Positions 1 to 45,590 of a stretch of 64,000 bases of DNA are shown piece after piece. The position numbers and the translations under genes are program-made. The stretch spans positions 81,880,397 to 81,944,396 of the forward strand of contig CM097887.1 of NCBI GenBank assembly GCA_044892525.1, in the 5' to 3' direction. Below the pieces are notes generated by a model. That model saw nothing but the letters and a program-made list of their open reading frames with translations. It searched no databases and was not told the origin of the DNA. Within the stretch, counting starts at the first letter, position 1. Each line of letters starts with the position of its first letter. The DNA comes from Schmidtea polychroa. Taxonomy: Eukaryota.

Positions 1-56
1 TTGAACGTTCTCAACAGATAAAAATCCAAAAACTTGTTATATTAATAAAATTTTAT
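1..56 (+). mobile_element. 3' terminus of an upstream copy of the tRNA-Thr-targeting non-LTR retrotransposon
   Basis: Identical to the last 56 nt of copy 1 (7580-7635) and joined to the tRNA 3' half at the same base. Confidence 0.93.
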
Positions 57-98
57 CTAGTAAACCAGGGGTCGTGAGTTCAATTCTCACCGAAGGCA
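57..98 (+). pseudogene. 3' half of an interrupted tRNA-Thr(AGT) gene
   Basis: CTAGTAAACCAGGGGTCGTGAGTTCAATTCTCACCGAAGGCA = nt 32-73 of the intact tRNAs at 7863, 8379 etc.; followed by T6. Confidence 0.95.
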
Positions 99-278
99 AT
101 TTTTTCCTAAATAAATTTTATCACATCAACATAAATCTTGTCTTGTCCGTTTTTGTTTCTAGTATTACAAAAATTCCAACAAAAAATCCTATTGATTGTC
201 CGACTTGTGTATGGGTTGGATTTTGATTTTTTCGGTACAGAATGCCACTTTATAGATTTAAATAGAAACCTCTCAAAT

Positions 279-304
279 ACTAAGCCCCTATAGCTCAGAG
301 GTTA
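279..304 (+). other. Variant tRNA 5' half plus 5-nt leader fused to ORF1 ATG
   Basis: ACTAA-GCCCCTATAGCTCAGAGGTTA aligns without gaps to the array's TGCAA-GCCTTCGTAGCTCAGTGGTTA (8 mismatches) and keeps an A-box-like TAGCTCAGAGG. Confidence 0.85.
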
Positions 305-2581
305 ATGGAAAAACACACAACGATGACGCAATCGCCTACGAATGAATTACTCATCAATCTCAATCAAAAATTACCGAATTTTGGATTACTCAATTGCAAA
401 ATTGCAAAATCTTCAATCATGTCTATGTTGAAATCTCAAATTCAACAATCTCAAGCTATTTTGGACCTGATTTCAAAAGATTCTGAAGAACCTTCAATTC
501 TGGAACCGGTTGAATCAATTAAAGAAATGCCAGAAGATTCTTTGGAATGCTCAAAGGAAAAGATGCCACTCCTTTTAAATTTGCCTTTTCCAATTGAGGA
601 AAGATTTCAGATACTGGAGAAGTCTATCGAATCTATATCTGGTAGGATTGATTTGATTTCTAATTTTCTTAATGTTAATAATGATGACAATAATAAAAAC
701 TTTTTTATTAAAAATTTAAAAGTAAATAATATTTCAAATAAGCATCTTCCTGTAATTTCTAACACTAAACCTGAAATTAATTCAAACTACTCTTCTAAAT
801 TAGTGGATAGTTCCGATAAATTGAAGGCGCCTTTTGTTGATGTTGAAATAGAGAAGTCGAAAACTCTGCATGTGGATTATAAGGGAAGTAATACTGCGTT
901 TAAAGAGGATAATGATATAGATAGATCAACTCGTATTTTGACAAAAAAAGAACGAGCTAATTTTTTGAAGAGCTTTCCAAAGTTTATTAATTTAATCAAA
1001 TTAGGTGAATCAAAATTTAAAGAGAATTTAATTAATTATGAACTTAATTTAATAACTAAATCAAAATTAAACTTTAATATTAATAATTTTGAAAAGTTAT
1101 ATTTTGAAAATGGAAAGTTTTTTATTTCTATTTATAACAAAAATGGAATGAGACCTGAGGTTAGGAATATGAAAGCTTTAATAAAACCTAAAATTATCTC
1201 TAGCAGTGGCCGAATTTTAAATAAAACTTTTATTTCAAGTTTAATTCGTACTGACAACAATTATAGTAAAATCTCTGCTTCTTTAGCAATTATGAAATTT
1301 TTATTTGCATTTTCTGACAAATTAGCTGCAACTGTTTCCATTAAAAATATTAATCAAAAGGGCTCTGTCATTAATAAAGAATTAGATTTACTAAAAAAAG
1401 AAAATAAACTTCCACAATTTTTAATAAATTCAGATATTAAATATCTAAATGGGGAATTTGTAATAAATGACATATTCAGTCCTTCAGAATCTCAAAATGA
1501 AGTTGTGAATCGCAGAGAGTTGTCTAGATCACAATTAAATCAATTATTTAAAAGTCATCCAGAGCTGAAAGAGATGTGTTTTGTTGAAAACTCATCTAAA
1601 TGTGCATCAAAATTGACTAATTTGTTACATAATTTAAAATTAAATAATAACTTTCTTGAGAATATTGAGTTTGATTCAGGAAGGTTTTTCAAATCTAAAG
1701 AAACTGTAAATAATGAATCAATTGGTGCGTCTGACATCATGTTTAACTTGGGACTGCTCAACTTCATTGACATTTCTAAGAAAAATGATGATTTTAAGGA
1801 ACTTCTACTTTCAACTTCTTCTCCTCAAAAGCTGGTTGATTTGATCTTTACGATAAATTATAAAATCTTGACGAAGGACATCAACTACTTGAACAACATT
1901 ACCTATGGAAATTATGTCATGAATTATTTTATAAATATTTTACTTTTACACTCTGTAGCTGATCTTGAAACTTGTGAATCTCTCACAATTGACGACTTTG
2001 ATTATTGGAGCGCTGACATGATAGAAAAAATTCCTTCTTCGTCATATTACTCTCAAAGTTGCAAGGAAAAGTTACTTAAATATAGGCAGTGGAAACTAGA
2101 GGGGGAAGTTGATAAACTAAGAAATATTATTTCGCCTGAGACAATTAATGTTGTTAATAAATTTTTGATTTCATCGGATGACTCTAATAAATCTATTAAG
2201 GAAGCAACTTTGAGTTTAGATGAACAAATGGACAAAATTAATACATTTAAACTAGGCGACAATGACCCAGACATTTTGAAATCTAAGCGGTTACTATACT
2301 TTATTTTGAGAGACAAGAAGTTGTTTCTAAGAAATAACAGCAAAATCTTCCAATTACCTATGACATGCAAAAAAATATGCACTCCAAAAATGTCATTATG
2401 TATTCATGAACTCTTGGACTTTCTTAAGGGGATAGAAAATCATTCATCTCCGATCTTTCCTACAATAGTTGACTCTCCATTGGTTATTGAATCACTTCCA
2501 ACTGATATAGACGCTGAGACGGATACAATAAAATCTCGTACTCGAAATGGTCGAAGAAGAGCGTTATCCGATTCTAAATGA
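305..2581 (+). CDS. Retrotransposon ORF1, 758 aa, unknown function
   Basis: Long ORF intact in three copies; N-terminal coiled-coil-like EERFQILEKSIESISGRIDLI; basic C-tail; no domain recognised. Confidence 0.85.
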   Translation: MEKHTTMTQSPTNELLINLNQKLPNFGLLNCKIAKSSIMSMLKSQIQQSQAILDLISKDSEEPSILEPVESIKEMPEDSLECSKEKMPLLLNLPFPIEERFQILEKSIESISGRIDLISNFLNVNNDDNNKNFFIKNLKVNNISNKHLPVISNTKPEINSNYSSKLVDSSDKLKAPFVDVEIEKSKTLHVDYKGSNTAFKEDNDIDRSTRILTKKERANFLKSFPKFINLIKLGESKFKENLINYELNLITKSKLNFNINNFEKLYFENGKFFISIYNKNGMRPEVRNMKALIKPKIISSSGRILNKTFISSLIRTDNNYSKISASLAIMKFLFAFSDKLAATVSIKNINQKGSVINKELDLLKKENKLPQFLINSDIKYLNGEFVINDIFSPSESQNEVVNRRELSRSQLNQLFKSHPELKEMCFVENSSKCASKLTNLLHNLKLNNNFLENIEFDSGRFFKSKETVNNESIGASDIMFNLGLLNFIDISKKNDDFKELLLSTSSPQKLVDLIFTINYKILTKDINYLNNITYGNYVMNYFINILLLHSVADLETCESLTIDDFDYWSADMIEKIPSSSYYSQSCKEKLLKYRQWKLEGEVDKLRNIISPETINVVNKFLISSDDSNKSIKEATLSLDEQMDKINTFKLGDNDPDILKSKRLLYFILRDKKLFLRNNSKIFQLPMTCKKICTPKMSLCIHELLDFLKGIENHSSPIFPTIVDSPLVIESLPTDIDAETDTIKSRTRNGRRRALSDSK

Positions 2582-5500
2582 AAATGTGTGCCTGCATCAG
2601 TGAAAATATCTGCTCCGTTCTCATATGAAACTGATGCAGAATGCACAAATAAACTTTCTGAAATTGACCGAACACGCTGGTTTACTGATGATGAAATTGA
2701 TTATTTCCTTCTACATCATATCAATAATCCAATGTTTACCTTTATAAGATGTTTCATTGTTAGTATCTTATGTTCTGATATTGCTGAAAATGTTGTTGAT
2801 CTTCCCAAAGCTATTTTTGAAGCTCAAGTAATTCTATGTCCACTCAACATTAACAACTCACATTGGGTCTTGTTTGTTTATTGTAAATCTTCATTAACTT
2901 CTTATTTTATCGATCCGATCTTGAAGAATAGAAATAGATTAGTAAATAAGGAGAGAGCTGTTAAAATAAACAATGTATTAAATTGTACTTTCAATCTTGA
3001 TTCATTAATAATTGAACACCCGTATAAAGATCTTGTTTATCAAGATAATAATTACGATTGTGGTCCTTTCATTTGCGGTTATGCGATGATTGTATCGCAA
3101 GAATGGAGCTCAATTCCTAATACGTTTGTCGAATACATTAGGAAACAATTGTTTCACTGTCAATCTATTTCTACTGTATCAGGAGGTGGCTTATCTAAAA
3201 ATCATTTTCTCAATAAAATCAACTTCAAAAAGGCAATAAAACCTAAAAGCAAACCCATTATGAATGTCAAAATTATAAACCCTAATAATGAGAAAGCTTG
3301 TGTCTCATCTCTGATAAGCAAATGGTACGAAAAATATCCAAGTATATTAGTTCTTTCTCCCGAAATAACAAATAGTTTAATCAGTCAAAATGATAATTTT
3401 ATAATTGAAAATATTACATTTTTGCAATTTAGAAACGTTGATCATATAATTTGTATAATTCCTAACGATAATTGCTGGTGTCTATTGTTTTGCTCAGTCA
3501 AATATGGACATAGTTATCTTTTTGATCTTAAACCTGGTTCGATTACTGAAAGATTGATAGGAATTTGTGAAAATATTACCGATTATTTGAATAAATTTAC
3601 TCTAAATAAAAAGGTTTATTTTGAAAAGAATCAAAATGCTTTTCGTTTAAAAATTTCATCTGAAGATCCGTTTGAATATGCAGTTGGGTACATTGCCTTC
3701 TTAGAAAAATATCTTTTTAATAGAATATTTGATAGAGATTATGTGATTAAAACTCTCAAACATATGAATGTGCAGCAGGCAATTGAAATTAACAAAAATT
3801 TAAATTTAATTAATTGCAAAATTACTGATAAAATTATAACTAATTTTTTTAATAACTTGAAACATTCCTCAGATTTTATTTTACTTAATAATACAATGTG
3901 CACTGCAATTTATGAAGACTGTACTCAATATCTGAAAGATTTTTTAAATATTGAGCATTTGATAAAAGCACAGGTTATTTTTTGTATTATGGCCCCTCCT
4001 AAAGCTCAAGAAATATTGTTTGTCATTGACTATAAAACTGATGAGCATTACTTTCTCAATCCCTCAACTTTAATTACTAATTTTAATTATTTATTTACTA
4101 GTCAAACTTTGTTGCATAAAATCAACGAAATTAGAGAATCGGCCGGTTGTTGTATAAAATCTGGTAATATTCCGCATGATGTTCGTGGTTCTGGCCTTGT
4201 GAGTCGTGTACTCATTTGTGCTTTTATAAAAAACTATATTTCTGATTTATCTTTAGAGAACCTCAATTTATTTGATATAGGCAGTGTAATTACTTCTTTG
4301 TTACCTCCAATAACGGAAACGATCAAGGTTTCGAAAAAAGACTTAAATGTAAAAAAAGAAATTGAAAAACCTTCTTTGGAGCGTCGAATTGAGAAAATTA
4401 ATCTCCTTTTATCAAATTTAGAAAACAGCAACGTTAATGAAATCTGTAAGATAATCATTGACAATTCATTGCGTCAAAGATCAGATGACAAAACTATGAT
4501 TCGTAGACCTTATCTGGGAAATAAACCTTCTTACGACAAACCTGACAAAAATATACTAATATCTGGCTTCCTATCTAATATGAAATTGACAGTGAATAAA
4601 ATACTGGCTGATGAGAAAATTGATGAAAGACCTTCAATAACTGACTACATTTCTAATTTCACTCATTCTGATCCTGTCATTAAATCTTACGATAAAGTGT
4701 TTAATTTCTGTCTGAGTTCTTTGTCAACTCTAGTTCTGAATCTAATTTCCACTGAAGATGTAAAGTTTGAAATTAAAAAAGCAGACAACACTTCTCCTGG
4801 ACTTGATGATATCAAGTATAAAGATTTATCTATTTTTGATCCTGAATACAAATTATTGACATTTTTCTTTAACAAAATAATAGTCGATAAAAATGTTCCA
4901 GAATGTTTAAAATCTTTCAAAACAATTATGATTCCGAAGCCTGATAAAGGTGACAAGTACACTTTAGTTTCTTCATGGCGACCAATAGCTCTATTGTCAG
5001 TCATTTACAAAGTGTTTGCGTCAGTGTTAGCTAGTCGTTTGACCAGTTGGGTGAAGGTCAATAATTTACTACACATTGGTCAGAAAGGAGGCTCAATCCA
5101 CGACGGATGTGTTGAACATAACTCTGTTCTTTCTTCCTGCTTGGAACACTCAAAATACAGTAAAAACACTCCAATTGCTATAGCCTGGCTTGATATTAAA
5201 GACGCCTTTGGCAGTGTCCCTCATGATTACATGTGGAAAATCCTGCGTCGCGTTGGAGTCAGTGAGGAATTCACCAACATCTTGAAGCTGTTATATACCG
5301 ATACAAGTTCTTTCTACACTTGTGGTCCAATTATTACACCAAACATTGCCATTAAACAGGGTGTCAAACAAGGATGCCCTATTTCAATGATTTTGTTTGC
5401 AATTGCGATAAATCCTGTTCTTGAATCTGTTAGTCAATCAAATGTGAAACCTTTCAAAATTGCTGGATCTTCGGTTCAAGTTCTTGCATATGCTGATGAC

Positions 5501-7126
5501 ATTGCACTTGTTGCAAATAATGTTTCCGATTTACAACGCATAATTGACATTGCAGTCGATACTGCTAATGAAATAGGTTTTGAATATCGACCTGAAAAGT
5601 GTGCTTTTCTTGAACTTCCAAATATTAACTCTGAAAGTAAAATCACAATCAATGGAATAAATATTAAGAAACTTTTACCAAACGAATTTTACCAATATCT
5701 GGGAGTTCCAGTCGGTGAGGAAACTGACCAAAGTCCTTACGAGATTTTGAATAAAGTTATTGTTGATGCAAATAAAATTGCAGAATCTGACTTGTTGGGA
5801 TGGCAAAAATTGAAAGCCTACAAAGTCTTTCTACACTCGCGCCTAATCTTTCCATTTAGAACGAGAGAAATAAAGATCAGTGCTCTTTCAACAACACAAG
5901 TTAATTGTACGAGTAAACTGAGAAGTATTCTAAGAAAGATCTTGAATTTGCCCAACCATTCTGAGACCAGTTATCTTTACAACTCCATTGAAAATGGAGG
6001 TGCGTCTTGTATTGATCTTCTTGATGAATATCATACACAGACGATTAGTCATTTTTTCCGACTCTTTACCTCTAATTGCATGTTCACTCGTAATATCAAT
6101 ATTGACTCTTTGAAATTCGTCACTGGTCCTCGACTGGGAATCAAGGAACCATCAATGCAAGAGAGTTTCAACTGGATAAATGGAGCTGAAAATATCAAAA
6201 CTCATTCTGGAAAGAAAACGAGATTCTATCGACCTCGGATAGCAATCAAGTACTTTCAAAGAACTCATGGTATTACCTTGTCTTTTGAAGTCGAGAAAAA
6301 TGAGCCTGTTCTTCGATTTACAACTATCGAACGTGGTACTTGTGTGTTGACAGCTTTGAATCGGAAAGCGATTTCTAAAATCATACATATTGCACTTTAT
6401 GATGCTTATTTTTCTAAATGGAAATTAAGTAGCACGAGTGGATCTTGTGCTTATAGTTTATCACCGAAAATCAATAAAGCGATTTACAATGGCAATCTTC
6501 GTGAAAGTCCTTGGAAATTCATACATCGTGCACGTACAAACACATTGTCTACCTTTGCTAAACCTTATCGAAAACCTGATGATAGACTTTGTAGGCGTTG
6601 TCATATTGAAGAGGAAACACTTTGCCATGTTCTGCAAACATGCAAAATTCACCAAATCCTTGCTCTTAAAAGACATAACGAATGCTTACGACTTATTACT
6701 GAGCAACTGAAAAATCCTTTTCTTATTGTTGTTATTGACCACACTTGTTCACTTGTTGTTGACTCTAAGGAGCGAGTTGATTTAATGATAACGGATAATG
6801 ATAAAAAGAAAATTTTCATGGTAGACGTCAAATGTCCTTTTGACACTCTACAAACCTTTGAAACGGTAGATAAAGGAAATTTGACAAAATACGATAATCT
6901 TCGACAGCAAATACAAGTTGCAAAGCCAAATTTTAAGGTGGAACTTTATACTTGTATCATTGGCTCATTAGGTTCTGTTCCACCAATGACATATGATGTG
7001 CTTGAGAAGATTGGAGTACCTAATCATAAAGTTGAATCTCTTGTAAGAGAATGTGCAATGAGCAATATAATGCACTCGGCTAAATCTTGGCATTACCATG
7101 CATATGGTATCTTACCAGGCTTCTAA
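2582..7126 (+). CDS. Retrotransposon ORF2: Ulp1/SENP-like cysteine protease, reverse transcriptase, CCHC finger, restriction-like endonuclease
   Basis: Numbering from GTG 2588: WFTDDEIDYF, H92 (NSHW), D109, Q152, C158 (QDNNYDCG); RT motifs SPGLDD, WRPIAL, LDIKDAFGSV, GVKQGCPIS, YADD (5489-5500), YLGV; CX2CX8HX4C at 6590-6643; RH, RVD, DVKCP, KY endonuclease motifs. Frame is open from 2582; first ATG is 2732. Confidence 0.95.
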   Translation, partial: KCVPASVKISAPFSYETDAECTNKLSEIDRTRWFTDDEIDYFLLHHINNPMFTFIRCFIVSILCSDIAENVVDLPKAIFEAQVILCPLNINNSHWVLFVYCKSSLTSYFIDPILKNRNRLVNKERAVKINNVLNCTFNLDSLIIEHPYKDLVYQDNNYDCGPFICGYAMIVSQEWSSIPNTFVEYIRKQLFHCQSISTVSGGGLSKNHFLNKINFKKAIKPKSKPIMNVKIINPNNEKACVSSLISKWYEKYPSILVLSPEITNSLISQNDNFIIENITFLQFRNVDHIICIIPNDNCWCLLFCSVKYGHSYLFDLKPGSITERLIGICENITDYLNKFTLNKKVYFEKNQNAFRLKISSEDPFEYAVGYIAFLEKYLFNRIFDRDYVIKTLKHMNVQQAIEINKNLNLINCKITDKIITNFFNNLKHSSDFILLNNTMCTAIYEDCTQYLKDFLNIEHLIKAQVIFCIMAPPKAQEILFVIDYKTDEHYFLNPSTLITNFNYLFTSQTLLHKINEIRESAGCCIKSGNIPHDVRGSGLVSRVLICAFIKNYISDLSLENLNLFDIGSVITSLLPPITETIKVSKKDLNVKKEIEKPSLERRIEKINLLLSNLENSNVNEICKIIIDNSLRQRSDDKTMIRRPYLGNKPSYDKPDKNILISGFLSNMKLTVNKILADEKIDERPSITDYISNFTHSDPVIKSYDKVFNFCLSSLSTLVLNLISTEDVKFEIKKADNTSPGLDDIKYKDLSIFDPEYKLLTFFFNKIIVDKNVPECLKSFKTIMIPKPDKGDKYTLVSSWRPIALLSVIYKVFASVLASRLTSWVKVNNLLHIGQKGGSIHDGCVEHNSVLSSCLEHSKYSKNTPIAIAWLDIKDAFGSVPHDYMWKILRRVGVSEEFTNILKLLYTDTSSFYTCGPIITPNIAIKQGVKQGCPISMILFAIAINPVLESVSQSNVKPFKIAGSSVQVLAYADDIALVANNVSDLQRIIDIAVDTANEIGFEYRPEKCAFLELPNINSESKITINGINIKKLLPNEFYQYLGVPVGEETDQSPYEILNKVIVDANKIAESDLLGWQKLKAYKVFLHSRLIFPFRTREIKISALSTTQVNCTSKLRSILRKILNLPNHSETSYLYNSIENGGASCIDLLDEYHTQTISHFFRLFTSNCMFTRNINIDSLKFVTGPRLGIKEPSMQESFNWINGAENIKTHSGKKTRFYRPRIAIKYFQRTHGITLSFEVEKNEPVLRFTTIERGTCVLTALNRKAISKIIHIALYDAYFSKWKLSSTSGSCAYSLSPKINKAIYNGNLRESPWKFIHRARTNTLSTFAKPYRKPDDRLCRRCHIEEETLCHVLQTCKIHQILALKRHNECLRLITEQLKNPFLIVVIDHTCSLVVDSKERVDLMITDNDKKKIFMVDVKCPFDTLQTFETVDKGNLTKYDNLRQQIQVAKPNFKVELYTCIIGSLGSVPPMTYDVLEKIGVPNHKVESLVRECAMSNIMHSAKSWHYHAYGILPGF
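2587..2647 (+). promoter_or_regulatory. Predicted RNA hairpin just 3' of the ORF1 UGA (candidate readthrough stimulator)
   Basis: CTGCATCAGT 2592-2601 pairs perfectly with ACTGATGCAG 2630-2639; extended by TGTGC 2587-2591/GCACA 2643-2647 across a 3-nt bulge. Same in copies 2 and 3. Confidence 0.65.
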
Positions 7127-7635
7127 TTATTAAAAATCGATTGAAAATAATTAATTTTGTTTCTCATATTAATTAAAAAAAAAAAAAAACTGTCATCATT
7201 ATTTATTTAAAGCATTATGAGGAATTGAATATCATTTTAATCTTGCCACTTATTAGTTTTGATAACCTAAACATAATAATAATCTTTTCAATTCATCATG
7301 AAGAGGTGGTCTGTTCTAATTTCAGATTCGATAATGATGAAAAAATTCAGCTGAAACAAGAAATCTTTGCAGAAACCTAGAATGGCGCTTAATTAATTTG
7401 GCTCTAAAACTTCTGCAAGTGTTAAGCTAAGCCGGAAACGAATCTCCGATGAAATCCAATATGCCTGAGAAATTTCAAGAAACAAAGTGCTTTCGAGACG
7501 AGTATTCTCCCAACCGATATAATTATCATAGAGATTTTGATCACCCAAGTGCCGACATTTCTTGAATGGCTGTTCCAAGTTGAACGTTCTCAACAGATAA
7601 AAATCCAAAAACTTGTTATATTAATAAAATTTTAT
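7127..7635 (+). other. Structured 3' UTR of the retrotransposon
   Basis: Internal A15 (7175-7189); inverted repeats 7292-7299/7334-7341, 7366-7374/7411-7419, 7474-7482/7558-7566; terminal stem-loop 7564-7589; AATAAA just before the junction. Confidence 0.75.
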
Positions 7636-7677
7636 CTAGTAAACCAGGGGTCGTGAGTTCAATTCTCACCGAAGGCA
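7636..7677 (+). pseudogene. 3' half of interrupted tRNA-Thr(AGT)
   Basis: nt 32-73 of the tRNA directly after the element end. Confidence 0.95.
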
Positions 7678-7862
7678 ATTTTTTCCTAAATAAATTTTAT
7701 CACATCAACATTAATCTTGTCTTGTCCGTTTTTGTTTCTCGTATTAGAAAAATTCCAACAAAAAATCCTATTGTTTGTCCGACTTGTGTATGGGTTGGAT
7801 TTTGATTTTTTCGGTACAGAATGCCACTTTATAGATTTAAATAGAAATCTCTCAAATTGCAA

Positions 7863-7935
7863 GCCTTCGTAGCTCAGTGGTTAGAGCACTGGTCTAGTAA
7901 ACCAGGGGTCGTGAGTTCAATTCTCACCGAAGGCA
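7863..7935 (+). tRNA. trnT: tRNA-Thr(AGT)
   Basis: Cloverleaf: GCCTTCG/CGAAGGC acceptor, GCTC/GAGC D-stem, CTGGT-CTAGTAA-ACCAG anticodon arm, GTGAG-TTCAATT-CTCAC T-arm, discriminator A. Confidence 0.95.
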
Positions 7936-7936
7936 A

Positions 7937-7942
7937 TTTTTT
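7937..7942 (+). terminator. Pol III terminator (T6), repeated after each tRNA of the 258-bp array
   Basis: TTTTTT begins 2 nt after the discriminator base. Confidence 0.8.
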
Positions 7943-8120
7943 CCTAAATAAATTTTATCACATCAACATTAATCTTGTCTTGTCCGTTTTTGTTTCTAGT
8001 ATTAGAAAAATTCCAACAAAAAATCCTATTGTTTGTCCGACTTGTGTATGGGTTGGATTTTGATTTTTTCGGTACAGAATGCCACTTTATAGATTTAAAT
8101 AGAAATCTCTCAAATTGCAA

Positions 8121-8193
8121 GCCTTAGTAGCTCAGTGGTTAGAGCACTGGTCTAGTAAACCAGGGGTCGTGAGTTCAATTCTCACCGAAGGCA
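8121..8193 (+). tRNA. trnT: tRNA-Thr(AGT), acceptor-stem variant (A6:G67 mismatch)
   Basis: As above but begins GCCTTAG. Confidence 0.85.
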
Positions 8194-8378
8194 ATTTTTT
8201 CCTAAATAAATTTTATCACATCAACATTAATCTTGTCTTGTCCGTTTTTGTTTCTAGTATTAGAAAAATTCCAACAAAAAATCCTATTGATTGTCCGACT
8301 TGTGTATGGGTTGGATTTTGAATTTTTCGGTACAGAATGCCACTTTATAGATTTAAATAGAAATCTCTCAAATTGCAA

Positions 8379-8451
8379 GCCTTCGTAGCTCAGTGGTTAG
8401 AGCACTGGTCTAGTAAACCAGGGGTCGTGAGTTCAATTCTCACCGAAGGCA
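8379..8451 (+). tRNA. trnT: tRNA-Thr(AGT)
   Basis: Perfect cloverleaf identical to 7863-7935. Confidence 0.95.
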
Positions 8452-8636
8452 ATTTTTTCCTAAATAAATTTTATCACATCAACATAAATCTTGTCTTGTC
8501 CGTTTTTGTTTCTAGTATTACAAAAATTCCAACAAAAAATCCTATTGATTGTCCGACTTGTGTATGGGTTGGATTTTGATTTTTTCGGTACAGAATGCCA
8601 CTTTATAGATTTAAATAGAAATCTCTCAAATTGCAA

Positions 8637-8657
8637 GCCTTCGTAGCTCAGTGGTTA
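8637..8657 (+). pseudogene. 5' part (nt 1-21) of interrupted tRNA-Thr(AGT), array-type sequence
   Basis: GCCTTCGTAGCTCAGTGGTTA followed directly by the ATG of ORF1. Confidence 0.93.
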
Positions 8658-15479: not shown

Positions 15480-15946
15480 TTATTAAAATTCGATTGAAAA
15501 TAATTAATTTTGTTTCTCATATTAATTAAAAAAAAAAAAAAAAAACTGTCATCATTATTTATTTAAAGCATTATGAGGAATTGAATATCATTTTAATCTT
15601 GCCACTTATTAGTTTTGATAACCTAAACATGATAATAATCTTTTCAATTCATCATGAAGAGCTGAAACAAGAAATCTTTGCAGAAACCTAGAATGGCGCT
15701 TAATTAATTTGGCTCTAAAACTTCTGCAAGTGTTAAGCTAAGCCGGAAACGAATCTCCGATGAAATCCAATATGCCTGAGAAATTTCAAGAAACAAAGTG
15801 CTTTCGAGACGAGTATTCTCCCAACCGATATAATTATCATAGAGATTTTGATCACCCAAGTGCCGACATTTCTTGAATGGCTGTTCCAAGTTGAACGTTC
15901 TCAACAGATAAAAATCCAAAAACTTGTTATATTAATAAAATTTTAT

Positions 15947-15988
15947 CTAGTAAACCAGGGGTCGTGAGTTCAATTCTCACCGAAGGCA
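15947..15988 (+). pseudogene. 3' half of interrupted tRNA-Thr(AGT)
   Basis: Same junction TTTTAT|CTAGTAAACC. Confidence 0.95.
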
Positions 15989-16168
15989 ATTTTTTCCTAA
16001 ATAAATTTTATCACATCAACATAAATCTTGTCTTGTCCGTTTTTGTTTCTAGTATTACAAAAATTCCAACAAAAAATCCTATTGATTGTCCGACTTGTGT
16101 ATGGGTTGGATTTTGATTTTTTCGGTACAGAATGCCACTTTATAGATTTAAATAGAAATCTCTCAAAT

Positions 16169-16194
16169 ACTAAGCCCCTATAGCTCAGAGGTTA
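16169..16194 (+). other. Variant tRNA 5' half plus leader fused to ORF1 ATG
   Basis: Identical to 279-304. Confidence 0.85.
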
Positions 16195-18471
16195 ATGGAA
16201 AAACACACAACGATGACGCAATCGCCTACGAATGAATTACTCATCAATCTCAATCAAAAATTACCGAATTTTGGATTACTCAATTGCAAAATTGCAAAAT
16301 CTTCAATCATGTCTATGTTGAAATCTCAAATTCAACAATCTCAAGCTATTTTGGACCTGATTTCAAAAGATTCTGAAGAACCTTCAATTCTGGAACCGGT
16401 TGAATCAATTAAAGAAATGCCAGAAGATTCTTTGGAATGCTCAAAGGAAAAGATGCCACTCCTTTTAAATTTGCCTTTTCCAATTGAGGAAAGATTTCAG
16501 ATACTGGAGAAGTCTATCGAATCTATATCTGGTAGGATTGATTTGATTTCTAATTTTCTTAATGTTAATAATGATGACAATAATAAAAACTTTTTTATTA
16601 AAAATTTAAAAGTAAATAATATTTCAAATAAGCATCTTCCTGTAATTTCTAACACTAAACCTGAAATTAATTCAAACTACTCTTCTAAATTAGTGGATAG
16701 TTCCGATAAATTGAAGGCGCCTTTTGTTGATGTTGAAATAGAGAAGTCGAAAACTCTGCATGTGGATTATAAGGGAAGTAATACTGCGTTTAAAGAGGAT
16801 AATGATATAGATAGATCAACTCGTATTTTGACAAAAAAAGAACGAGCTAATTTTTTGAAGAGCTTTCCAAAGTTTATTAATTTAATCAAATTAGGTGAAT
16901 CAAAATTTAAAGAGAATTTAATTAATTATGAACTTAATTTAATAACTAAATCAAAATTAAACTTTAATATTAATAATTTTGAAAAGTTATATTTTGAAAA
17001 TGGAAAGTTTTTTATTTCTATTTATAACAAAAATGGAATGAGACCTGAGGTTAGGAATATGAAAGCTTTAATAAAACCTAAAATTATCTCTAGCAGTGGC
17101 CGAATTTTAAATAAAACTTTTATTTCAAGTTTAATTCGTACTGACAACAATTATAGTAAAATCTCTGCTTCTTTAGCAATTAAGAAATTTTTATTTGCAT
17201 TTTCTGACAAATTAGCTGCAACTGTTTCCATTAAAAATATTAATCAAAAGGGCTCTGTCATTAATAAAGAATTAGATTTACTAAAAAAAGAAAATAAACT
17301 TCCACAATTTTTAATAAATTCAGATATTAAATATCTAAATGGGGAATTTGTAATAAATGACATATTCAGTCCTTCAGAATCTCAAAATGAAGTTGTGAAT
17401 CGCAGAGAGTTGTCTAGATCACAATTAAATCAATTATTTAAAAGTCATCCAGAGCTGAAAGAGATGTGTTTTGTTGAAAACTCATCTAAATGTGCATCAA
17501 AATTGACTAATTTGTTACATAATTTAAAATTAAATAATAACTTTCTTGAGAATATTGAGTTTGATTCAGGAAGGTTTTTCAAATCTAAAGAAACTGTAAA
17601 TAATGAATCAATTGGTGCGTCTGACATCATGTTTAACTTGGGACTGCTCAACTTCATTGACATTTCTAAGAAAAATGATGATTTTAAGGAACTTCTACTT
17701 TCAACTTCTTCTCCTCAAAAGCTGGTTGATTTGATCTTTACGATAAATTATAAAATCTTGACGAAGGACATCAACTACTTGAACAACATTACCTATGGAA
17801 ATTATGTCATGAATTATTTTATAAATATTTTACTTTTACACTCTGTAGCTGATCTTGAAACTTGTGAATCTCTCACAATTGACGACTTTGATTATTGGAG
17901 CGCTGACATGATAGAAAAAATTCCTTCTTCGTCATATTACTCTCAAAGTTGCAAGGAAAAGTTACTTAAATATAGGCAGTGGAAACTAGAGGGGGAAGTT
18001 GATAAACTAAGAAATATTATTTCGCCTGAGACAATTAATGTTGTTAATAAATTTTTGATTTCATCGGATGACTCTAATAAATCTATTAAGGAAGCAACTT
18101 TGAGTTTAGATGAACAAATGGACAAAATTAATACATTTAAACTAGGCGACAATGACCCAGACATTTTGAAATCTAAGCGGTTACTATACTTTATTTTGAG
18201 AGACAAGAAGTTGTTTCTAAGAAATAACAGCAAAATCTTCCAATTACCTATGACATGCAAAAAAATATGCACTCCAAAAATGTCATTATGTATTCATGAA
18301 CTCTTGGACTTTCTTAAGGGGATAGAAAATCATTCATCTCCGATCTTTCCTACAATAGTTGACTCTCCATTGGTTATTGAATCACTTCCAACTGATATAG
18401 ACGCTGAGACGGATACAATAAAATCTCGTACTCGAAATGGTCGAAGAAGAGCGTTATCCGATTCTAAATGA
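16195..18471 (+). CDS. ORF1, copy 3 (758 aa)
   Basis: Intact ORF matching copies 1 and 2. Confidence 0.85.
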   Translation: MEKHTTMTQSPTNELLINLNQKLPNFGLLNCKIAKSSIMSMLKSQIQQSQAILDLISKDSEEPSILEPVESIKEMPEDSLECSKEKMPLLLNLPFPIEERFQILEKSIESISGRIDLISNFLNVNNDDNNKNFFIKNLKVNNISNKHLPVISNTKPEINSNYSSKLVDSSDKLKAPFVDVEIEKSKTLHVDYKGSNTAFKEDNDIDRSTRILTKKERANFLKSFPKFINLIKLGESKFKENLINYELNLITKSKLNFNINNFEKLYFENGKFFISIYNKNGMRPEVRNMKALIKPKIISSSGRILNKTFISSLIRTDNNYSKISASLAIKKFLFAFSDKLAATVSIKNINQKGSVINKELDLLKKENKLPQFLINSDIKYLNGEFVINDIFSPSESQNEVVNRRELSRSQLNQLFKSHPELKEMCFVENSSKCASKLTNLLHNLKLNNNFLENIEFDSGRFFKSKETVNNESIGASDIMFNLGLLNFIDISKKNDDFKELLLSTSSPQKLVDLIFTINYKILTKDINYLNNITYGNYVMNYFINILLLHSVADLETCESLTIDDFDYWSADMIEKIPSSSYYSQSCKEKLLKYRQWKLEGEVDKLRNIISPETINVVNKFLISSDDSNKSIKEATLSLDEQMDKINTFKLGDNDPDILKSKRLLYFILRDKKLFLRNNSKIFQLPMTCKKICTPKMSLCIHELLDFLKGIENHSSPIFPTIVDSPLVIESLPTDIDAETDTIKSRTRNGRRRALSDSK

Positions 18472-21400
18472 AAATGTGTGCCTGCATCAGTGAAAATATC
18501 TGCTCCGTTCTCATATGAAACTGATGCAGAATGCACAAATAAACTTTCTGAAATTGACCGAACACGCTGGTTTACTGATGATGAAATTGATTATTTCCTT
18601 CTACATCATATCAATAATCCAATGTTTACCTTTATAAGATGTTTCATTGTTAGTATCTTATGTTCTGATATTGCTGAAAATGTTGTTGATCTTCCCAAAG
18701 CTATTTTTGAAGCTCAAGTAATTCTATGTCCACTCAACATTAACAACTCACATTGGGTCTTGTTTGTTTATTGTAAATCTTCATTAACTTCTTATTTTAT
18801 CGATCCGATCTTGAAGAATAGAAATAGATTAGTAAATAAGGAGAGAGCTGTTAAAATAAACAATGTATTAAATTGTACTTTCAATCTTGATTCATTAATA
18901 ATTGAACACCCGTATAAAGATCTTGTTTATCAAGATAATAATTACGATTGTGGTCCTTTCATTTGCGGTTATGCGATGATTGTATCGCAAGAATGGAGCT
19001 CAATTCCTAATACGTTTGTCGAATACATTAGGAAACAATTGTTTCACTGTCAATCTATTTCTACTGTATCAGGAGGTGGCTTATCTAAAAATCATTTTCT
19101 CAATAAAATCAACTTCAAAAAGGCAATAAAACCTAAAAGCAAACCCATTATGAATGTCAAAATTATAAACCCTAATAATGAGAAAGCTTGTGTCTCATCT
19201 CTGATAAGCAAATGGTACGAAAAATATCCAAGTATATTAGTTCTTTCTCCCGAAATAACAAATAGTTTAATCAGTCAAAATGATAATTTTATAATTGAAA
19301 ATATTACATTTTTGCAATTTAGAAACGTTGATCATATAATTTGTATAATTCCTAACGATAATTGCTGGTGTCTATTGTTTTGCTCAGTCAAATATGGACA
19401 TAGTTATCTTTTTGATCTTAAACCTGGTTCGATTACTGAAAGATTGATAGGAATTTGTGAAAATATTACCGATTATTTGAATAAATTTACTCTAAATAAA
19501 AAGGTTTATTTTGAAAAGAATCAAAATGCTTTTCGTTTAAAAATTTCATCTGAAGATCCGTTTGAATATGCAGTTGGGTACATTGCCTTCTTAGAAAAAT
19601 ATCTTTTTAATAGAATATTTGATAGAGATTATGTGATTAAAACTCTCAAACATATGAATGTGCAGCAGGCAATTGAAATTAACAAAAATTTAAATTTAAT
19701 TAATTGCAAAATTACTGATAAAATTATAACTAATTTTTTTAATAACTTGAAACATTCCTCAGATTTTATTTTACTTAATAATACAATGTGCACTGCAATT
19801 TATGAAGACTGTACTCAATATCTGAAAGATTTTTTAAATATTGAGCATTTGATAAAAGCACAGGTTATTTTTTGTATTATGGCCCCTCCTAAAGCTCAAG
19901 AAATATTGTTTGTCATTGACTATAAAACTGATGAGCATTACTTTCTCAATCCCTCAACTTTAATTACTAATTTTAATTATTTATTTACTAGTCAAACTTT
20001 GTTGCATAAAATCAACGAAATTAGAGAATCGGCCGGTTGTTGTATAAAATCTGGTAATATTCCGCATGATGTTCGTGGTTCTGGCCTTGTGAGTCGTGTA
20101 CTCATTTGTGCTTTTATAAAAAACTATATTTCTGATTTATCTTTAGAGAACCTCAATTTATTTGATATAGGCAGTGTAATTACTTCTTTGTTACCTCCAA
20201 TAACGGAAACGATCAAGGTTTCGAAAAAAGACTTAAATGTAAAAAAAGAAATTGAAAAACCTTCTTTGGAGCGTCGAATTGAGAAAATTAATCTCCTTTT
20301 ATCAAATTTAGAAAACAGCAACGTTAATGAAATCTGTAAGATAATCATTGACAATTCATTGCGTCAAAGATCAGATGACAAAACTATGATTCGTAGACCT
20401 TATCTGGGAAATAAACCTTCTTACGACAAACCTGACAAAAATATACTAATATCTGGCTTCCTATCTAATATGAAATTGACAGTGAATAAAATACTGGCTG
20501 ATGAGAAAATTGATGAAAGACCTTCAATAACTGACTACATTTCTAATTTCACTCATTCTGATCCTGTCATTAAATCTTACGATAAAGTGTTTAATTTCTG
20601 TCTGAGTTCTTTGTCAACTCTAGTTCTGAATCTAATTTCCACTGAAGATGTAAAGTTTGAAATTAAAAAAGCAGACAACACTTCTCCTGGACTTGATGAT
20701 ATCAAGTATAAAGATTTATCTATTTTTGATCCTGAATACAAATTATTGACATTTTTCTTTAACAAAATAATAGTCGATAAAAATGTTCCAGAATGTTTAA
20801 AATCTTTCAAAACAATTATGATTCCGAAGCCTGATAAAGGTGACAAGTACACTTTAGTTTCTTCATGGCGACCAATAGCTCTATTGTCAGTCATTTACAA
20901 AGTGTTTGCGTCAGTGTTAGCTAGTCGTTTGACCAGTTGGGTGAAGGTCAATAATTTACTACACATTGGTCAGAAAGGAGGCTCAATCCACGACGGATGT
21001 GTTGAACATAACTCTGTTCTTTCTTCCTGCTTGGAACACTCAAAATACAGTAAAAACACTCCAATTGCTATAGCCTGGCTTGATATTAAAGACGCCTTTG
21101 GCAGTGTCCCTCATGATTACATGTGGAAAATCCTGCGTCGCGTTGGAGTCAGTGAGGAATTCACCAACATCTTGAAGCTGTTATATACCGATACAAGTTC
21201 TTTCTACACTTGTGGTCCAATTATTACACCAAACATTGCCATTAAACAGGGTGTCAAACAAGGATGCCCTATTTCAATGATTTTGTTTGCAATTGCGATA
21301 AATCCTGTTCTTGAATCTGTTAGTCAATCAAATGTGAAACCTTTCAAAATTGCTGGATCTTCGGTTCAAGTTCTTGCATATGCTGATGACATTGCACTTG

Positions 21401-22980
21401 TTGCAAATAATGTTTCCGATTTACAACGCATAATTGACATTGCAGTCGATACTGCTAATGAAATAGGTTTTGAATATCGACCTGAAAAGTGTGCTTTTCT
21501 TGAACTTCCAAATATTAACTCTGAAAGTAAAATCACAATCAATGGAATAAATATTAAGAAACTTTTACCAAACGAATTTTACCAATATCTGGGAGTTCCA
21601 GTCGGTGAGGAAACTGACCAAAGTCCTTACGAGATTTTGAATAAAGTTATTGTTGATGCAAATAAAATTGCAGAATCTGACTTGTTGGGATGGCAAAAAT
21701 TGAAAGCCTACAAAGTCTTTCTACACTCGCGCCTAATCTTTCCATTTAGAACGAGAGAAATAAAGATCAGTGCTCTTTCAACAACACAAGTTAATTGTAC
21801 GAGTAAACTGAGAAGTATTCTAAGAAAGATCTTGAATTTGCCCAACCATTCTGAGACCAGTTATCTTTACAACTCCATTGAAAATGGAGGTGCGTCTTGT
21901 ATTGATCTTCTTGATGAATATCATACACAGACGATTAGTCATTTTTTCCGACTCTTTACCTCTAATTGCATGTTCACTCGTAATATCAATATTGACTCTT
22001 TGAAATTCGTCACTGGTCCTCGACTGGGAATCAAGGAACCATCAATGCAAGAGAGTTTCAACTGGATAAATGGAGCTGAAAATATCAAAACTCATTCTGG
22101 AAAGAAAACGAGATTCTATCGACCTCGGATAGCAATCAAGTACTTTCAAAGAACTCATGGTATTACCTTGTCTTTTGAAGTCGAGAAAAATGAGCCTGTT
22201 CTTCGATTTACAACTATCGAACGTGGTACTTGTGTGTTGACAGCTTTGAATCGGAAAGCGATTTCTAAAATCATACATATTGCACTTTATGATGCTTATT
22301 TTTCTAAATGGAAATTAAGTAGCACGAGTGGATCTTGTGCTTATAGTTTATCACCGAAAATCAATAAAGCGATTTACAATGGCAATCTTCGTGAAAGTCC
22401 TTGGAAATTCATACATCGTGCACGTACAAACACATTGTCTACCTTTGCTAAACCTTATCGGAAACCTGATGATAGACTTTGTAGACGTTGTCATATTGAA
22501 GAGGAAACACTGCCATGTTCTGCAAACATGCAAAATTCACCAAATCCTTGCTCTTAAAAGACATAATGAATGCTTACGACTTATTACTGAGCAACTGAAA
22601 AATCCTTTTCTTATTGTTGTTATTGATCACACTTGTTCACTTGTTGTTGACTCTAAGGAGCGAGTTGATCTAATGATAACGGATAATGATAAAAAGAAAA
22701 TTTTCATGGTAGACATCAAATGTCCTTTTGACACTCTACAGACTTTTGAAACGGTAGATAAAGGAAATTTGACAAAATACGAAAATCTTCGAAAGCAAAT
22801 ACAAGTTGCGAAGCCAAATTTTATGGTTCTGTTCCACCAATGACATATGATGTGCTTGAGAAGATTGGAGTACCGAATAATAAAATTGAATCTCTTGTAA
22901 GAGAATGTGCAATGAGCAATATAACGCACTCGGCTAAATCTTGGCATTACCATGCATATGGTATCTTACCAGGATTCTAA
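18472..22980 (+). pseudogene. ORF2, copy 3, frameshifted within the CCHC finger
   Basis: Frame ends at 22557 after ACACTTTGCC>ACACTGCC; endonuclease motifs continue out of frame to the homologous stop at 22978-22980. Confidence 0.9.
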
Positions 22981-23479
22981 TTATTAAAGTTCGATTAAAA
23001 ATAATTAATTTTGTTTCTCATATTAATTAAAAATTGTCATCATTATTTATTTAAAGCATTATGAGGAATTGAATATCATTTTGATCTTGCCACTTATTAG
23101 TTTTGATAGTCTAAACATGATAATAATCTTTTCAATTCATCATGGAGAGGTGGTCCATTCTAATTTCAGATTCAACAATGATGAACAAATTCAGCTGAAA
23201 CGAGAAAAGTTTGCAGAAACCTAGAATAGAGCTTAATTAATTTGGCTCTAAAATTTCTGCAAGTGTTAAGCTAAGCCGGAAACGAATCTCCGATGAAATC
23301 CAATATGCCTGAGAAATTTCAAGAAACAAAGTGCTTTCGAGATGAGTATTCTCCCAACCGATATATTTATCACAGAGATTTTGATCACCCAAGTGCCGAC
23401 ATTTCCTGAATGGCTGTTCCAAGTTGAACGTTCTCAACAGATAAAAATCCAAAAACTTGTTATATTAATAAAATTTTAT

Positions 23480-23521
23480 CTAGTAAACCAGGGGTCGTGA
23501 GTTCAATTCTCACCGAAGGCA
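23480..23521 (+). pseudogene. 3' half of interrupted tRNA-Thr(AGT)
   Basis: Same junction as other copies. Confidence 0.95.
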
Positions 23522-23706
23522 ATTTTTTCCTAAATAAATTTTATCACATCAACATTAATCTTGTCTTGTCCGTTTTTGTTTCTAGTATTAGAAAAATTCC
23601 AACAAAAAATCCTATTGATTGTCCGACTTGTGTATGGGTTGGATTTTGATTTTTTCGGTACAGAATGCCACTTTATAGATTTAAATAGAAATCTCTCAAA
23701 TTGCAA

Positions 23707-23779
23707 GCCTTCGTAGCTCAGTGGTTAGAGCACTGGTCTAGTAAACCAGGGGTCGTGAGTTCAATTCTCACCGAAGGCA
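23707..23779 (+). tRNA. trnT: tRNA-Thr(AGT)
   Basis: Perfect cloverleaf with T6 terminator. Confidence 0.95.
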
Positions 23780-23964
23780 ATTTTTTCCTAAATAAATTTT
23801 ATCACATCAACATTAATCTTGTCTTGTCCGTTTTTGTTTCTAGTATTAGAAAAATTCCAACAAAAAATCCTATTGATTGTCCGACTTGTGTATGGGTTGG
23901 ATTTTGCTTTTTTCGGTACAGAATGCCACTTTATAGATTTAAATAGAAATCTCTCAAATTGCAA

Positions 23965-24037
23965 GCCTTCGTAGCTCAGTGGTTAGAGCACTGGTCTAGT
24001 AAACCAGGGGTCGTGAGTTCAATTCTCACCGAAGGCA
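23965..24037 (+). tRNA. trnT: tRNA-Thr(AGT)
   Basis: Perfect cloverleaf with T6 terminator. Confidence 0.95.
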
Positions 24038-24217
24038 ATTTTTTCCTAAATAAATTTTATCACATCAACATTAATCTTGTCTTGTCCGTTTTTGTTTCTA
24101 GTATTAGAAAAATTCCAACAAAAAATCCTATTGATTGTCCGACTTGTGTATGGGTTGGATTTTGATTTTTTCGGTACAGAATGCCACTTTATAGATTTAA
24201 ATAGAAATCTCTCAAAT

Positions 24218-24243
24218 ACTAAGCCCCTATAGCTCAGAGGTTA
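24218..24243 (+). other. Variant tRNA 5' half plus leader fused to an ORF1 fragment
   Basis: Identical to 279-304. Confidence 0.85.
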
Positions 24244-24651
24244 ATGGAAAAACACACAACGATGACGCAATCGCCTTCGAATGAATTACTCATCAATCTC
24301 AATCAAAAATTACCGCATTTTGCATTACTCAATTGCAAAATTGCAAAATCTTTAATCATGTCTTTGTTGAAATCTCAAATTCAACAATCTCAAGCTATTT
24401 TGGACCTGATTTCAAAAGATTCTGAAGAACCTTCAATTCTGGAACCTGTTGAATCAATTGAGGACATGCCTGAAGATTCAATGAAATTCTCTGAAGAAAA
24501 GATTCCACAACTTTCTACTATGCCTTTTTCATTTGAAGAAAGATTTCAGATTCTTGAGAAGACTATTGAATATGTATGTGGTAGGATTGATTTGATTTTT
24601 AATTCCTTAAATGACAAAAATAAAAATATTATTAAAGAGATATTGATATGA
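24244..24651 (+). pseudogene. Diverged 5' fragment of ORF1 (135 aa) leading into the 1915-bp array
   Basis: MEKHTTMTQSPSNELL... homologous to ORF1, stops early and continues as 1915-bp-unit sequence. Confidence 0.88.
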
Positions 24652-26593: not shown

Positions 26594-26899
26594 ATGAATG
26601 TGAGCTCAGTTAATGGAAATGCCCCAAATGGTAAATTTATTATTATTACTATCACAAGTTATTAATATTCTTTATCAAATTAATTTATTGGAGACAGGGC
26701 TGCTATCATAGAAAATGAATATGGTAAATTATTTATATTTTAATTAATAAAAATAAAAAATACATTCTATAAAAACATTATTGTAGATGATGCACCGGTT
26801 TCCAATGGGGATGATATTATGAATTATGCCCTCATTTCTAATGGTGAAGATACGATTATAGTAGATGTACCAATCTCAAGAATGACTATTCCATATTGA
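26594..26899 (+). CDS. Putative spliced 59-aa mini-ORF in each 1915-bp unit: join(26594-26630,26694-26723,26787-26899)
   Basis: Three GT..AG AT-rich introns (26511-26561, 26631-26693, 26724-26786), all phase 1; spliced frame open: MNVSSVNGNAPNDRAAIIENEYDDAPVSNGDDIMNYALISNGEDTIIVDVPISRMTIPY. Intron 2 acceptor is a weak GAG. Confidence 0.4.
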
Positions 26900-27078
26900 A
26901 GAATCTCTTGAAAAAAATGAAACCAATAACTTGCTAAATTAATAGAATTTTAATCGAAAAAATCAAGAGTGATGATTTCAATTCTCACCAAAGGCAATTC
27001 GAGAATGACCGTTCAATTTTAAACATTCTCTTGAAAAAGAATGAAACCAATAACTTGACATATTAATAAAATTTTAAT

Positions 27079-27120
27079 CTAGTAAACCAGGGGTCGTGAG
27101 TTCAATTCTCACCAAAGGCA
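27079..27120 (+). pseudogene. tRNA-Thr 3' half inside the 1915-bp unit (representative; others at ~26955-26996 and 27257-27297; repeats every 1915 bp)
   Basis: CTAGTAAACCAGGGGTCGTGAGTTCAATTCTCACCAAAGGCA preceded by element-3'-end sequence TTAATAAAATTTTAAT. Confidence 0.88.
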
Positions 27121-45476: not shown

Positions 45477-45590
45477 AAAAATACTGGCACCCTGTCAAAA
45501 TAGCCCAAGAATGAAGCTGCCAAGTCGGTGGCGGAGATGCGGAGACGTGCTGCTGAAGGCCTGGAGAAACCTCGCCAGATAATTCAACAT
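45477..45590 (+). other. Templated filler: duplicated MULE left end fused to an internal transposase segment
   Basis: 45486-45509 copies the element left end; 45508-45589 is identical to 46291-46372. Confidence 0.88.

Follow-up and report, generated by a model that had tools for sequence, protein, structure and literature searches.

A retrotransposon of the R5/LIN group within a tRNA-Thr gene array of Schmidtea polychroa

Targeting of tRNA genes is already known for the R5/LIN lineage of retrotransposons, which carry a restriction-like endonuclease (RLE). In the excerpts of PMC4640811 on which we draw, LIN15_SM lies in tRNA-Arg genes and uses four Arg isoacceptors, LIN25_SM lies in tRNA-Glu, LIN9_SM shows shared, diverged target-like 5' flanks, and NeSL-1_TV lies in tRNA-Pro; NeSL-1 is described as co-transcribed with its host gene, and R5-2_SM from Schmidtea mediterranea is listed under the NeSL clade (PMC7650587, likewise in part). 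R2 RNAs retain 9-36 nt of upstream target that anneals, and R2 junction variants are propagated, fixed deletions included (PMC3774820, in part). Here we analyse a 64,000-nt stretch of Schmidtea polychroa DNA (assembly GCA_044892525.1, contig CM097887.1, positions 81,880,397 to 81,944,396; hereafter the window) that holds copies of a 7.3-kb retrotransposon lacking long terminal repeats (non-LTR) and bearing two open reading frames (ORFs), within an array of tRNA-Thr(AGT) genes in 258-bp units. A first-pass annotation of this DNA had pointed to planarian LIN families reported as tRNA-targeted, correctly so (PMC4640811). A Thr target was not found reported: S6 Fig of PMC4640811 lists none, and a search of literature titles and abstracts, which took in neither Repbase Reports nor the original R5 and NeSL-1 papers, returned among the matches listed no tRNA-Thr-targeted RLE element, no NeSL-clade readthrough and no Ulp1 self-cleavage at Gly-Gly. 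We put at roughly 80% the reading that an R5/LIN-group element inserts by target-primed reverse transcription into tRNA-Thr genes, an estimate that covers jointly the junction, the cut, the tRNA-tagged template and the later multiplication of copies.

The array, its element copies (E0 to E4) and the satellite that follows them are laid out as below; the tag mentioned for E2 is a 5' stretch of Thr(CGT) type that we return to later.

1..56, + strand: element 3' end, clipped at the window edge (E0)
57..98, + strand: tRNA-Thr(AGT) 3' half, nt 32-73, after E0
305..7635, + strand: full-length copy of 7331 bp, both ORFs open (E1)
7636..8657, + strand: array block with a 3' half, three intact tRNA-Thr(AGT) genes and a host-type 5' half (8637-8657) preceding E2
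8658..15946, + strand: full-length copy, both ORFs open, without the Thr(CGT) tag and with a 45-bp deletion in its 3' untranslated region (UTR) (E2)
16195..23479, + strand: recombinant copy, ORF2 broken by 2-bp and 37-bp deletions (E3)
23480..24217, + strand: array block with two intact genes (23707, 23965)
24244..25049, + strand: 5' fragment running into satellite (E4)
25050..45478, + strand: satellite of 11 units of 1915 bp; a unit combines a shortened spacer with tails A, B and C, all of which adjoin tRNA nt 32, and the decayed 5' part of an older subfamily
47532..48590, + strand: what remains of the last satellite unit beyond a MULE insertion, holding three further junctions

The four element 3' ends in the array (56, 7635, 15946 and 23479) lie just where the first-pass annotation had placed them, each abutting tRNA nt 32, with which the anticodon loop begins, and there is no target-site duplication. 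When both strands of the window were scanned with four tail types, 39 distinct tail sites emerged, all 39 on the + strand and each followed by tRNA nt 32 (66 rows reduce to these 39 sites: 23 'other flank' rows lie 1 nt before A or B sites, and 4 further B rows are taken to be 1-nt duplicates of E sites). Counted from the tRNA side there are 44 3' halves, again all on the + strand: five in intact genes, four after young tails and 35 in the satellite region, whose 35 tail/tRNA-3'-half junctions are of three types. At least three tail types in the window share the junction at nt 32. A T at the join is present in every tail type and could be target nt 31, so that the nick would fall at 30/31 or 31/32.

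The two sides of these junctions have diverged to very different degrees. Tail B differs from the end of E1 at 20/76 positions and its tRNA half from the intact gene at 1/42 (Fisher p = 0.0008); for tail C the counts are 14/74 and 2/41 (Fisher p = 0.048), tails B and C differ from one another at 19/71, and tail A is decayed on both sides (22/77 in the tail, 10/42 in the tRNA half). Tails so much more diverged than the tRNA halves they abut fit a history in which different master elements used one site, and about three independent lineages appear to have inserted at the same base. The 1915-bp satellite arose from such a retrotransposon/tRNA junction region after its death; each unit carries tRNA 3' halves that have box B and lack box A.

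Intact tRNA-Thr(AGT) genes start at 7863, 8121, 8379, 23707 and 23965, and the spacing of array units is exactly 258 bp, which reproduces the five genes and the register first described. Contrary to what was first described, copies and intact genes do not alternate: E0 and E1 are followed by three intact genes, then come E2 and E3, a further two intact genes and E4. Both ORFs are intact only in E1 and E2. One intact gene (8121-8193) has a C6-to-A change in the acceptor stem and a reduced score. Within the 258-bp spacer, a hairpin of 10 bp leads into a T run (8551-8574 and the equivalent place in each unit), and just 3' of the hairpin a pyrimidine tract ending in CAG resembles a splice acceptor, which could matter for trans-splicing of element RNA.

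The protein that would make these junctions is encoded by ORF2, whose C-terminal part, together with the 3' end of the element, comprises the following.

4931..5707, + strand: reverse transcriptase (RT) core with YADD motif, RVT_1 E 1e-29
6590..6643, + strand: CCHC zinc knuckle
6671..7100, + strand: RLE with the pattern RH..D..DxK, aligned to R2 proteins
7127..7635, + strand: 3' UTR of E1, with an AT-rich terminal motif like the LIN15_SM, LIN24_SM and LIN25_SM tails (by eye)

This order, in which a CCHC knuckle and a PD-(D/E)xK-like endonuclease come after a non-LTR RT, is that of RLE-type elements; self-comparison revealed no LTRs or terminal repeats within any copy, and the 3' ends are identical. 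Among 44 matches to ORF2, at least seven were full-length relatives at 33-49%, and a further search added more. In a quick RT tree of 104/106 selected proteins, in which no named R5, LIN or NeSL reference was included, the element falls into a clade of 12 rows (support by the SH-aLRT branch test, 99), and the RT, CCHC and RLE motifs are present in 12/12 of its members; ORF2 itself gives a two-segment alignment to R2 proteins. Its RT is identical to that of R5-2_SM at 265/369 positions, about 72% (by eye; sequence from the supplement of PMC7650587, part of that source), and the RTs of R5, R5-1_SM and LIN9_SM in the same source are visibly far more distant, which suggests an R5/LIN-lineage element near to but distinct from R5-2_SM: at 28% RT divergence the two do not share a family consensus. 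In the literature examined, Repbase entry excluded, we found no statement of the target, ORF layout or N-terminal domains of R5-2_SM. Taken together, assignment to the RLE type, the R5/LIN group and the NeSL clade sensu Kojima and Jurka 2015 is supported by sequence comparison, and the initial call of a NeSL-clade RLE element with a fixed 3' junction in tRNA-Thr finds support in both domains and tails. A prokaryotic genome scan gave just three distant RT loci (27-28% matches), which we did not use. Just before the first RT motif, at about residue 776 of ORF2 (near 4907), there is a Leu where seven aligned relatives have Trp. By analogy with R2, the RLE would nick the bottom strand at one of the two positions given above and the RT would copy the element RNA from its AT-rich tail.

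How ORF2 is translated is a separate question, posed by the boundary between the two ORFs.

305..2581, + strand: ORF1, 758 aa from the first ATG, ending in TGA
2582..7126, + strand: ORF2, sharing the frame of ORF1, 1514 aa between stops
2587..2647, + strand: 15-bp stem-loop, 5 nt after the ORF1 stop and spanning a GTG at 2588, identical in E1-E3

A single TGA separates the two ORFs, which share a frame, and ORF2 has no start AUG: its first Met is residue 51, within the protease domain described below. A second ATG of ORF1, at 323, is kept in the older satellite copy. ORF1 itself has no relatives in Pfam, in a 90% protein set (8000 candidates), among 291 fetched proteins or in the relative P0165, and the ESM Atlas gave no usable match. 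The stem that follows the stop has a folding energy of -21.2 kcal/mol (z -4.2; 0/200 shuffles). Its conservation was judged from the proteins of relatives, not their DNA, through eight pairs that fall at codon positions 1/2 in both arms. All eight are possible in 9/12 N-termini (counting our query); of the other three, one allows seven and two allow six. For the nine, the background chance of full pairing elsewhere in the protein is at most 0.0014 per window. Pairing of 8/8 in the nine requires GTG as codon 1, and ATG costs each of them a pair, which suggests that the 'Met' in database entries is a gene-caller reading of GTG. A switch between Ser/Asp and Pro/Gly in the stem codons is compensatory.

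An in-frame stop with 3' RNA structure is the arrangement of known readthrough cassettes, and we give about even odds that the UGA and its stem allow readthrough to an ORF1-ORF2 polyprotein. Three points weigh against this. The stem window was picked after inspection and ranked third of 209 in a blind scan, 3/12 N-termini fall short of 8/8 pairs, and the Ser/Asp versus Pro/Gly switch follows the tree and so amounts to about one independent event.

An alternative, which we consider credible if somewhat short of an even chance, is that the GUG at 2588 serves as the start of a separate ORF2 protein, reached through re-initiation downstream of ORF1 or R2-like internal entry, with no ORF1 fusion. 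Gene callers start 11 relatives at this aligned position, and translation of R2 proteins does not depend on a Met start (PMC13580325, in part). The base following the ORF1 UGA is A, and an A in that position is not the classic leaky context, which again favours initiation over readthrough. On the other side, this GUG is one of the paired elements of the stem, and an invariant Thr codon opposite, with which it pairs, accounts for its being conserved. Moreover, the frame is continuous with ORF1, and a one-ORF relative exists: P0165 joins about 1100 N-terminal residues, a Ulp1 domain, a Gly-Gly and an RT in one ORF, its N-terminus not being similar to ORF1.

If readthrough does occur, the N-terminal half of ORF2 offers a candidate route by which the polyprotein would be cut.

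2633..3172, + strand: Ulp1-like domain 1, with His94, Asp111, Gln154 and Cys160, residues kept in 12/12 clade members
3182..3190, + strand: Gly-Gly-Gly (aa 201-203), a candidate site of self-cleavage within a linker modelled at low confidence
3287..3736, + strand: domain 2, repeating the same secondary-structure pattern without catalytic residues
3797..4300, + strand: domain 3, Ulp1/SENP fold (Z 15.9, root-mean-square deviation (rmsd) 2.6, 160 aligned)

AlphaFold models (pLDDT, the model confidence score, 73 and 86) place three repeats ahead of the RT. Domain 1 matches Peptidase_C48 (E 2e-9), and its model aligns with NEDP1/Ulp1/SENP (Z 16.3, rmsd 3.2, 168 aligned). In domain 3 the catalytic Cys position holds Ser and the Asp position Asn in 12/12 (alignments read by eye). 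Domain 2 is classed as Ulp1-like by way of its similarity to domain 3 (profile probability 88%), direct profile matches of domain 1 with domains 2 and 3 being weak at 10% and 8%. Two more distant relatives, P0160 and P0056, have two Pfam Ulp1 stretches, the second of which in P0160 reads DSG for DCG. ORF2 contains no zinc-finger motif ahead of the RT.

Ulp1-family proteases cut after Gly-Gly, and the adenovirus protease accepts both Gly-Gly and Gly-x-Gly patterns. Because a Gly-Gly is conserved in the low-confidence linker of this family, 41-53 residues past the catalytic Cys in 12/14 proteins, we consider it probable, with some reserve, that the intact Ulp1 domain cuts there, freeing the two dead Ulp1-like folds together with RT and RLE. 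What speaks against it is that 2/14 proteins lack the Gly-Gly. Some single-Ulp1 relatives outside the clade also lack the motif.

A possible but rather doubtful alternative is that host SUMO or NEDD8 conjugates are the sole substrates of the Ulp1 domain, for example against silencing or in repair, and that the Gly-Gly is a flexible hinge. In its favour, the closest folds are SENP, Ulp1 and NEDP1, a role in the ubiquitin/SUMO pathway has been proposed for transposon Ulp1 domains (PMC2836005, in part), and there are the same two proteins without Gly-Gly; both of these, however, carry Gly-x-Gly. The motif is nearly invariant in an otherwise variable linker, and elsewhere in these proteins Gly-Gly occurs mainly in two RT motifs. 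A host role and self-cleavage are, in any case, not mutually exclusive.

Joining the two proposals, readthrough of the UGA past the conserved stem would give an ORF1-ORF2 polyprotein and the Ulp1-like protease would then cut at Gly-Gly to release a protein comprising the dead-fold pair, RT and RLE. That both hold, making expression gammaretrovirus-like with stem-stimulated readthrough and Ulp1 self-cleavage together, seems unlikely. More speculative by far is the further idea, conceivable at best, that the dead SUMO-protease folds replace the zinc fingers of R2 and tether the enzyme to SUMO-rich tRNA chromatin, of the kind described in human cells (PMC3787255, in part). The Cys-to-Ser change in domain 3 is like a laboratory substrate trap.

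We now return to the preferred reading of insertion into tRNA-Thr genes and to its 5' side, where three copies carry a tag.

279..302, + strand: E1 5' tag, 5 nt of foreign flank plus Thr(CGT) nt 1-19
16169..16192, + strand: E3 5' tag, Thr(CGT) type
24218..24241, + strand: E4 5' tag, Thr(CGT) type

All four 5' ends read GGTTA/ATGG. The uniform 5' junction without target-site duplication that had been described initially is therefore confirmed, but not the loss of nt 22-31 alone: relative to the AGT unit, E1, E3 and E4 replace everything from -5 to +31. The array's own tRNA 5' half is found only in E2. The three others share eight substitutions from -5 to nt 16, with normal spacer upstream, and their 24-nt tag consists of 5 nt of foreign flank and nt 1-19 identical to THR-CGT_tRNA_1. 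Random decay is ruled out as its origin, the tag being equal to an annotated tRNA start. Among S. mediterranea tRNA entries there are matches both to the tag and to the window's Thr(AGT) gene; tRNAs being conserved, this suggests a planarian host, though not a particular species. Since E4 differs from E1 at 6/242 positions, the tag is not merely a recent duplicate.

The tag points to a source copy in another isoacceptor gene. The annotated AGT, CGT and TGT Thr genes have the same sequence around the cut except for the wobble base, and a 15-nt motif occurs in seven rows of the tRNA table (two annotated Thr, four Thr-like rows labelled undetermined, one Ala(CGC)). A tag of Thr(CGT) type suggests that the element moves between Thr isoacceptors, and the AGT-only specificity first proposed is not supported. 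In the mechanism that we favour, the template RNA would start about 5 nt upstream of the host tRNA gene, the complementary DNA would finish with some 24 nt of tRNA sequence able to pair with the next target, and the join would keep either the tag (E1, E3, E4) or the host allele (E2); the target would be the sequence common to Thr isoacceptors. The 10-bp loss is, by analogy, probably an inherited junction as in some R2s rather than a readout of each cut.

Several results sit badly with such a template. The five flank bases of the tag could not be matched to any Thr(CGT) locus (the table holds mature tRNAs only), Rfam gave only tRNA-type matches and two weak chance ones, with no 5' ribozyme, and the start of a 7.3-kb RNA near -5 of a tRNA gene is unexplained. 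Two crude descriptors of a hepatitis delta virus (HDV)-like core gave no match, though a divergent ribozyme could escape them, and eight hammerhead-core heptamers lie within 57-7900. Transcription of the whole element by RNA polymerase III was considered and rejected: T tracts at least four letters long number 65, beginning at 379, and no box B-like match is present; a bacterial promoter scan has no bearing on this host. Near the start of ORF1, the top-scoring 70-nt window of a folding scan (385-454; z -4.5, -9.4 kcal/mol) could be a 5' RNA signal.

Imagine instead that the element is site-specific and that the Thr(CGT) tag was acquired once, through DNA-level conversion or an RT template jump, and does not reflect a regular RNA 5' end. 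We think this unlikely, yet it accounts for the missing tag in E2 and for the satellite copy, with its 5' join at about nt 2 of the tRNA; nor did the searches reveal a ribozyme that would set the RNA end at -5. Against it, the transcript of a tRNA gene would start at -5, where the tag ends, the tag holds flank bases absent from a mature tRNA fragment, and E4, some 2% diverged from E1, carries it too. R2 provides a precedent for such tags (PMC3774820).

The history of the copies bears on how many insertions the window records, and here lie the main points against repeated insertion at one base. To begin with, all flanks examined come from this window. The first 6.2 kb of E1-E3 contain just four differing sites, and two spacer single-nucleotide polymorphisms (SNPs) occur in 3/4 units preceding an element and 0/5 preceding an intact gene (p = 0.048), which together suggest that E1-E3 may have multiplied along with the adjoining flank, partly co-amplified and possibly going back to a single event. 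The last 70 nt of E3 are identical to those of E1, so that the independence of the E3 junction is not proven. The satellite is one amplified unit and counts once, its eight inner units (2-9) differing mutually at 0-3 of 1915 positions; tails A and B resemble a local 124-bp duplication; and gene conversion from intact genes could keep tRNA halves young.

The same copies also contain sequence of other subfamilies. In the last kilobase of E3, 10/17 substitutions relative to E1 are silent, where the expected fraction is 0.21 (p = 0.0008), which suggests that a sister subfamily was active; in the ORF1 fragments of satellite and E4 silent changes are weakly in excess (p = 0.03 and 0.05). After a first stretch of 242 nt with its six differences from E1, E4 continues as older-subfamily sequence, and both E3 and E4 are mosaics. 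Unequal exchange would later have multiplied and recombined the copies and built the satellite. The worry raised at the outset, that one insertion was simply amplified with the array, is partly borne out for E1-E3 by the common spacer SNPs; the satellite tail types speak against it. It is improbable that one old insertion in a tRNA-Thr gene, spread by tandem amplification, recombination and conversion and made by an endonuclease with no real preference for tRNA-Thr, explains the whole window: near-identical E1-E3, uniform inner satellite units and mosaic E3 and E4 are in its favour, but tail divergence far exceeds that of the tRNA halves, selection acted while the sister sequence diverged, a second tRNA-Thr locus is needed to supply a tag from another isoacceptor, and relatives are target-specific.

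Elsewhere in the window, a MULE-type DNA transposon (45479-47531, with a FLYWCH and MULE ORF at 46089-47441) splits the final unit of the satellite; it has a rearranged left end, and the overlap at the site is just 2 bp. Decayed pieces resembling an LTR-retrotransposon gag zinc knuckle, aspartic protease and RT start (by eye) lie at about 49900-56750 on the + strand. On the - strand, a 242-aa ORF at 58951-59679 matches Monjiviricetes_fusion (E 2e-25) and is a viral glycoprotein-like fragment, perhaps of endogenous viral origin or else the envelope gene belonging to an LTR element. At 56950-58360 and 60800-61470 there are several tandem repeats, short and degenerate, with periods of 14-225, and an N gap spans 61528-61684.

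For insertion technology the prospects look weaker than was first suggested. At a length of 7.3 kb, with two ORFs of which the second lacks a plain start codon, the element hardly qualifies as a compact tool, and as a ready-made one it is less attractive than R2. Without an N-terminal zinc finger, however, a site-specific RLE protein must recognise its target otherwise, and such zinc-finger-free recognition matters for the retargeting of R2-like proteins. The Thr(CGT) tag would mark the start of the template RNA and movement between isoacceptor genes, so that tRNA-embedded transcription and 5' joining become testable. Likewise, the in-frame stop, the conserved stem and the Gly-Gly make a concrete, mutable hypothesis for the role of Ulp1 in the NeSL clade and for the translation of an RT ORF without AUG; expression and domain layout would be notable if confirmed.

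How, then, does the element compare with described systems? With R2 it shares the RT-CCHC-RLE core (E 4e-85 to the solved R2 protein) and, by analogy, target-derived 5' RNA, uniform heritable junctions and an RT protein that would need no AUG. R2, though, has one ORF, a 28S target, N-terminal zinc fingers and an HDV-like ribozyme, whereas here we see two in-frame ORFs, Ulp1 folds and no detected ribozyme; having neither the 28S target nor the single ORF nor the zinc fingers, the element is not an R2. Moloney murine leukaemia virus (MuLV) gag-pol offers a functional analogy, an in-frame stop and 3' RNA structure lying between the first ORF and the protease-RT ORF (PMC5009743, in part), but it belongs to an unrelated class and uses UAG and a pseudoknot, with readthrough that is proven there and predicted from sequence here. 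NeSL-1 and Utopia-1_TSP of nematodes likewise have an N-terminal Ulp1-like protease ahead of the RT; they target SL1 and U2 and are shown with one protease domain, where the present ORF2 has two further dead folds. Utopia families, moreover, usually have 1-3 N-terminal zinc fingers (PMC4640811), and ORF2 has none. NeSL-1_TV of Trichomonas is, like our element, tRNA-gene-specific and of RLE type, with uniform 5' junctions and a few target bases lost, but it inserts in the T arm, and its phylogenetic position is given as unresolved in PMC4640811. A further parallel is with LIN15_SM and LIN25_SM, RLE elements that lie inside tRNA genes in sense direction with a fixed 3' junction and a similar AT-rich tail (PMC4640811). 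LIN15_SM joins near nt 24 and LIN25_SM near nt 5, the present element at nt 32; the only 5' boundary shown for LIN15_SM overlaps the target, whereas the present element deletes target bases. With tRNA targeting known for the lineage, the headline of the first-pass annotation comes down to a target not found reported before, tRNA-Thr, within a known group.

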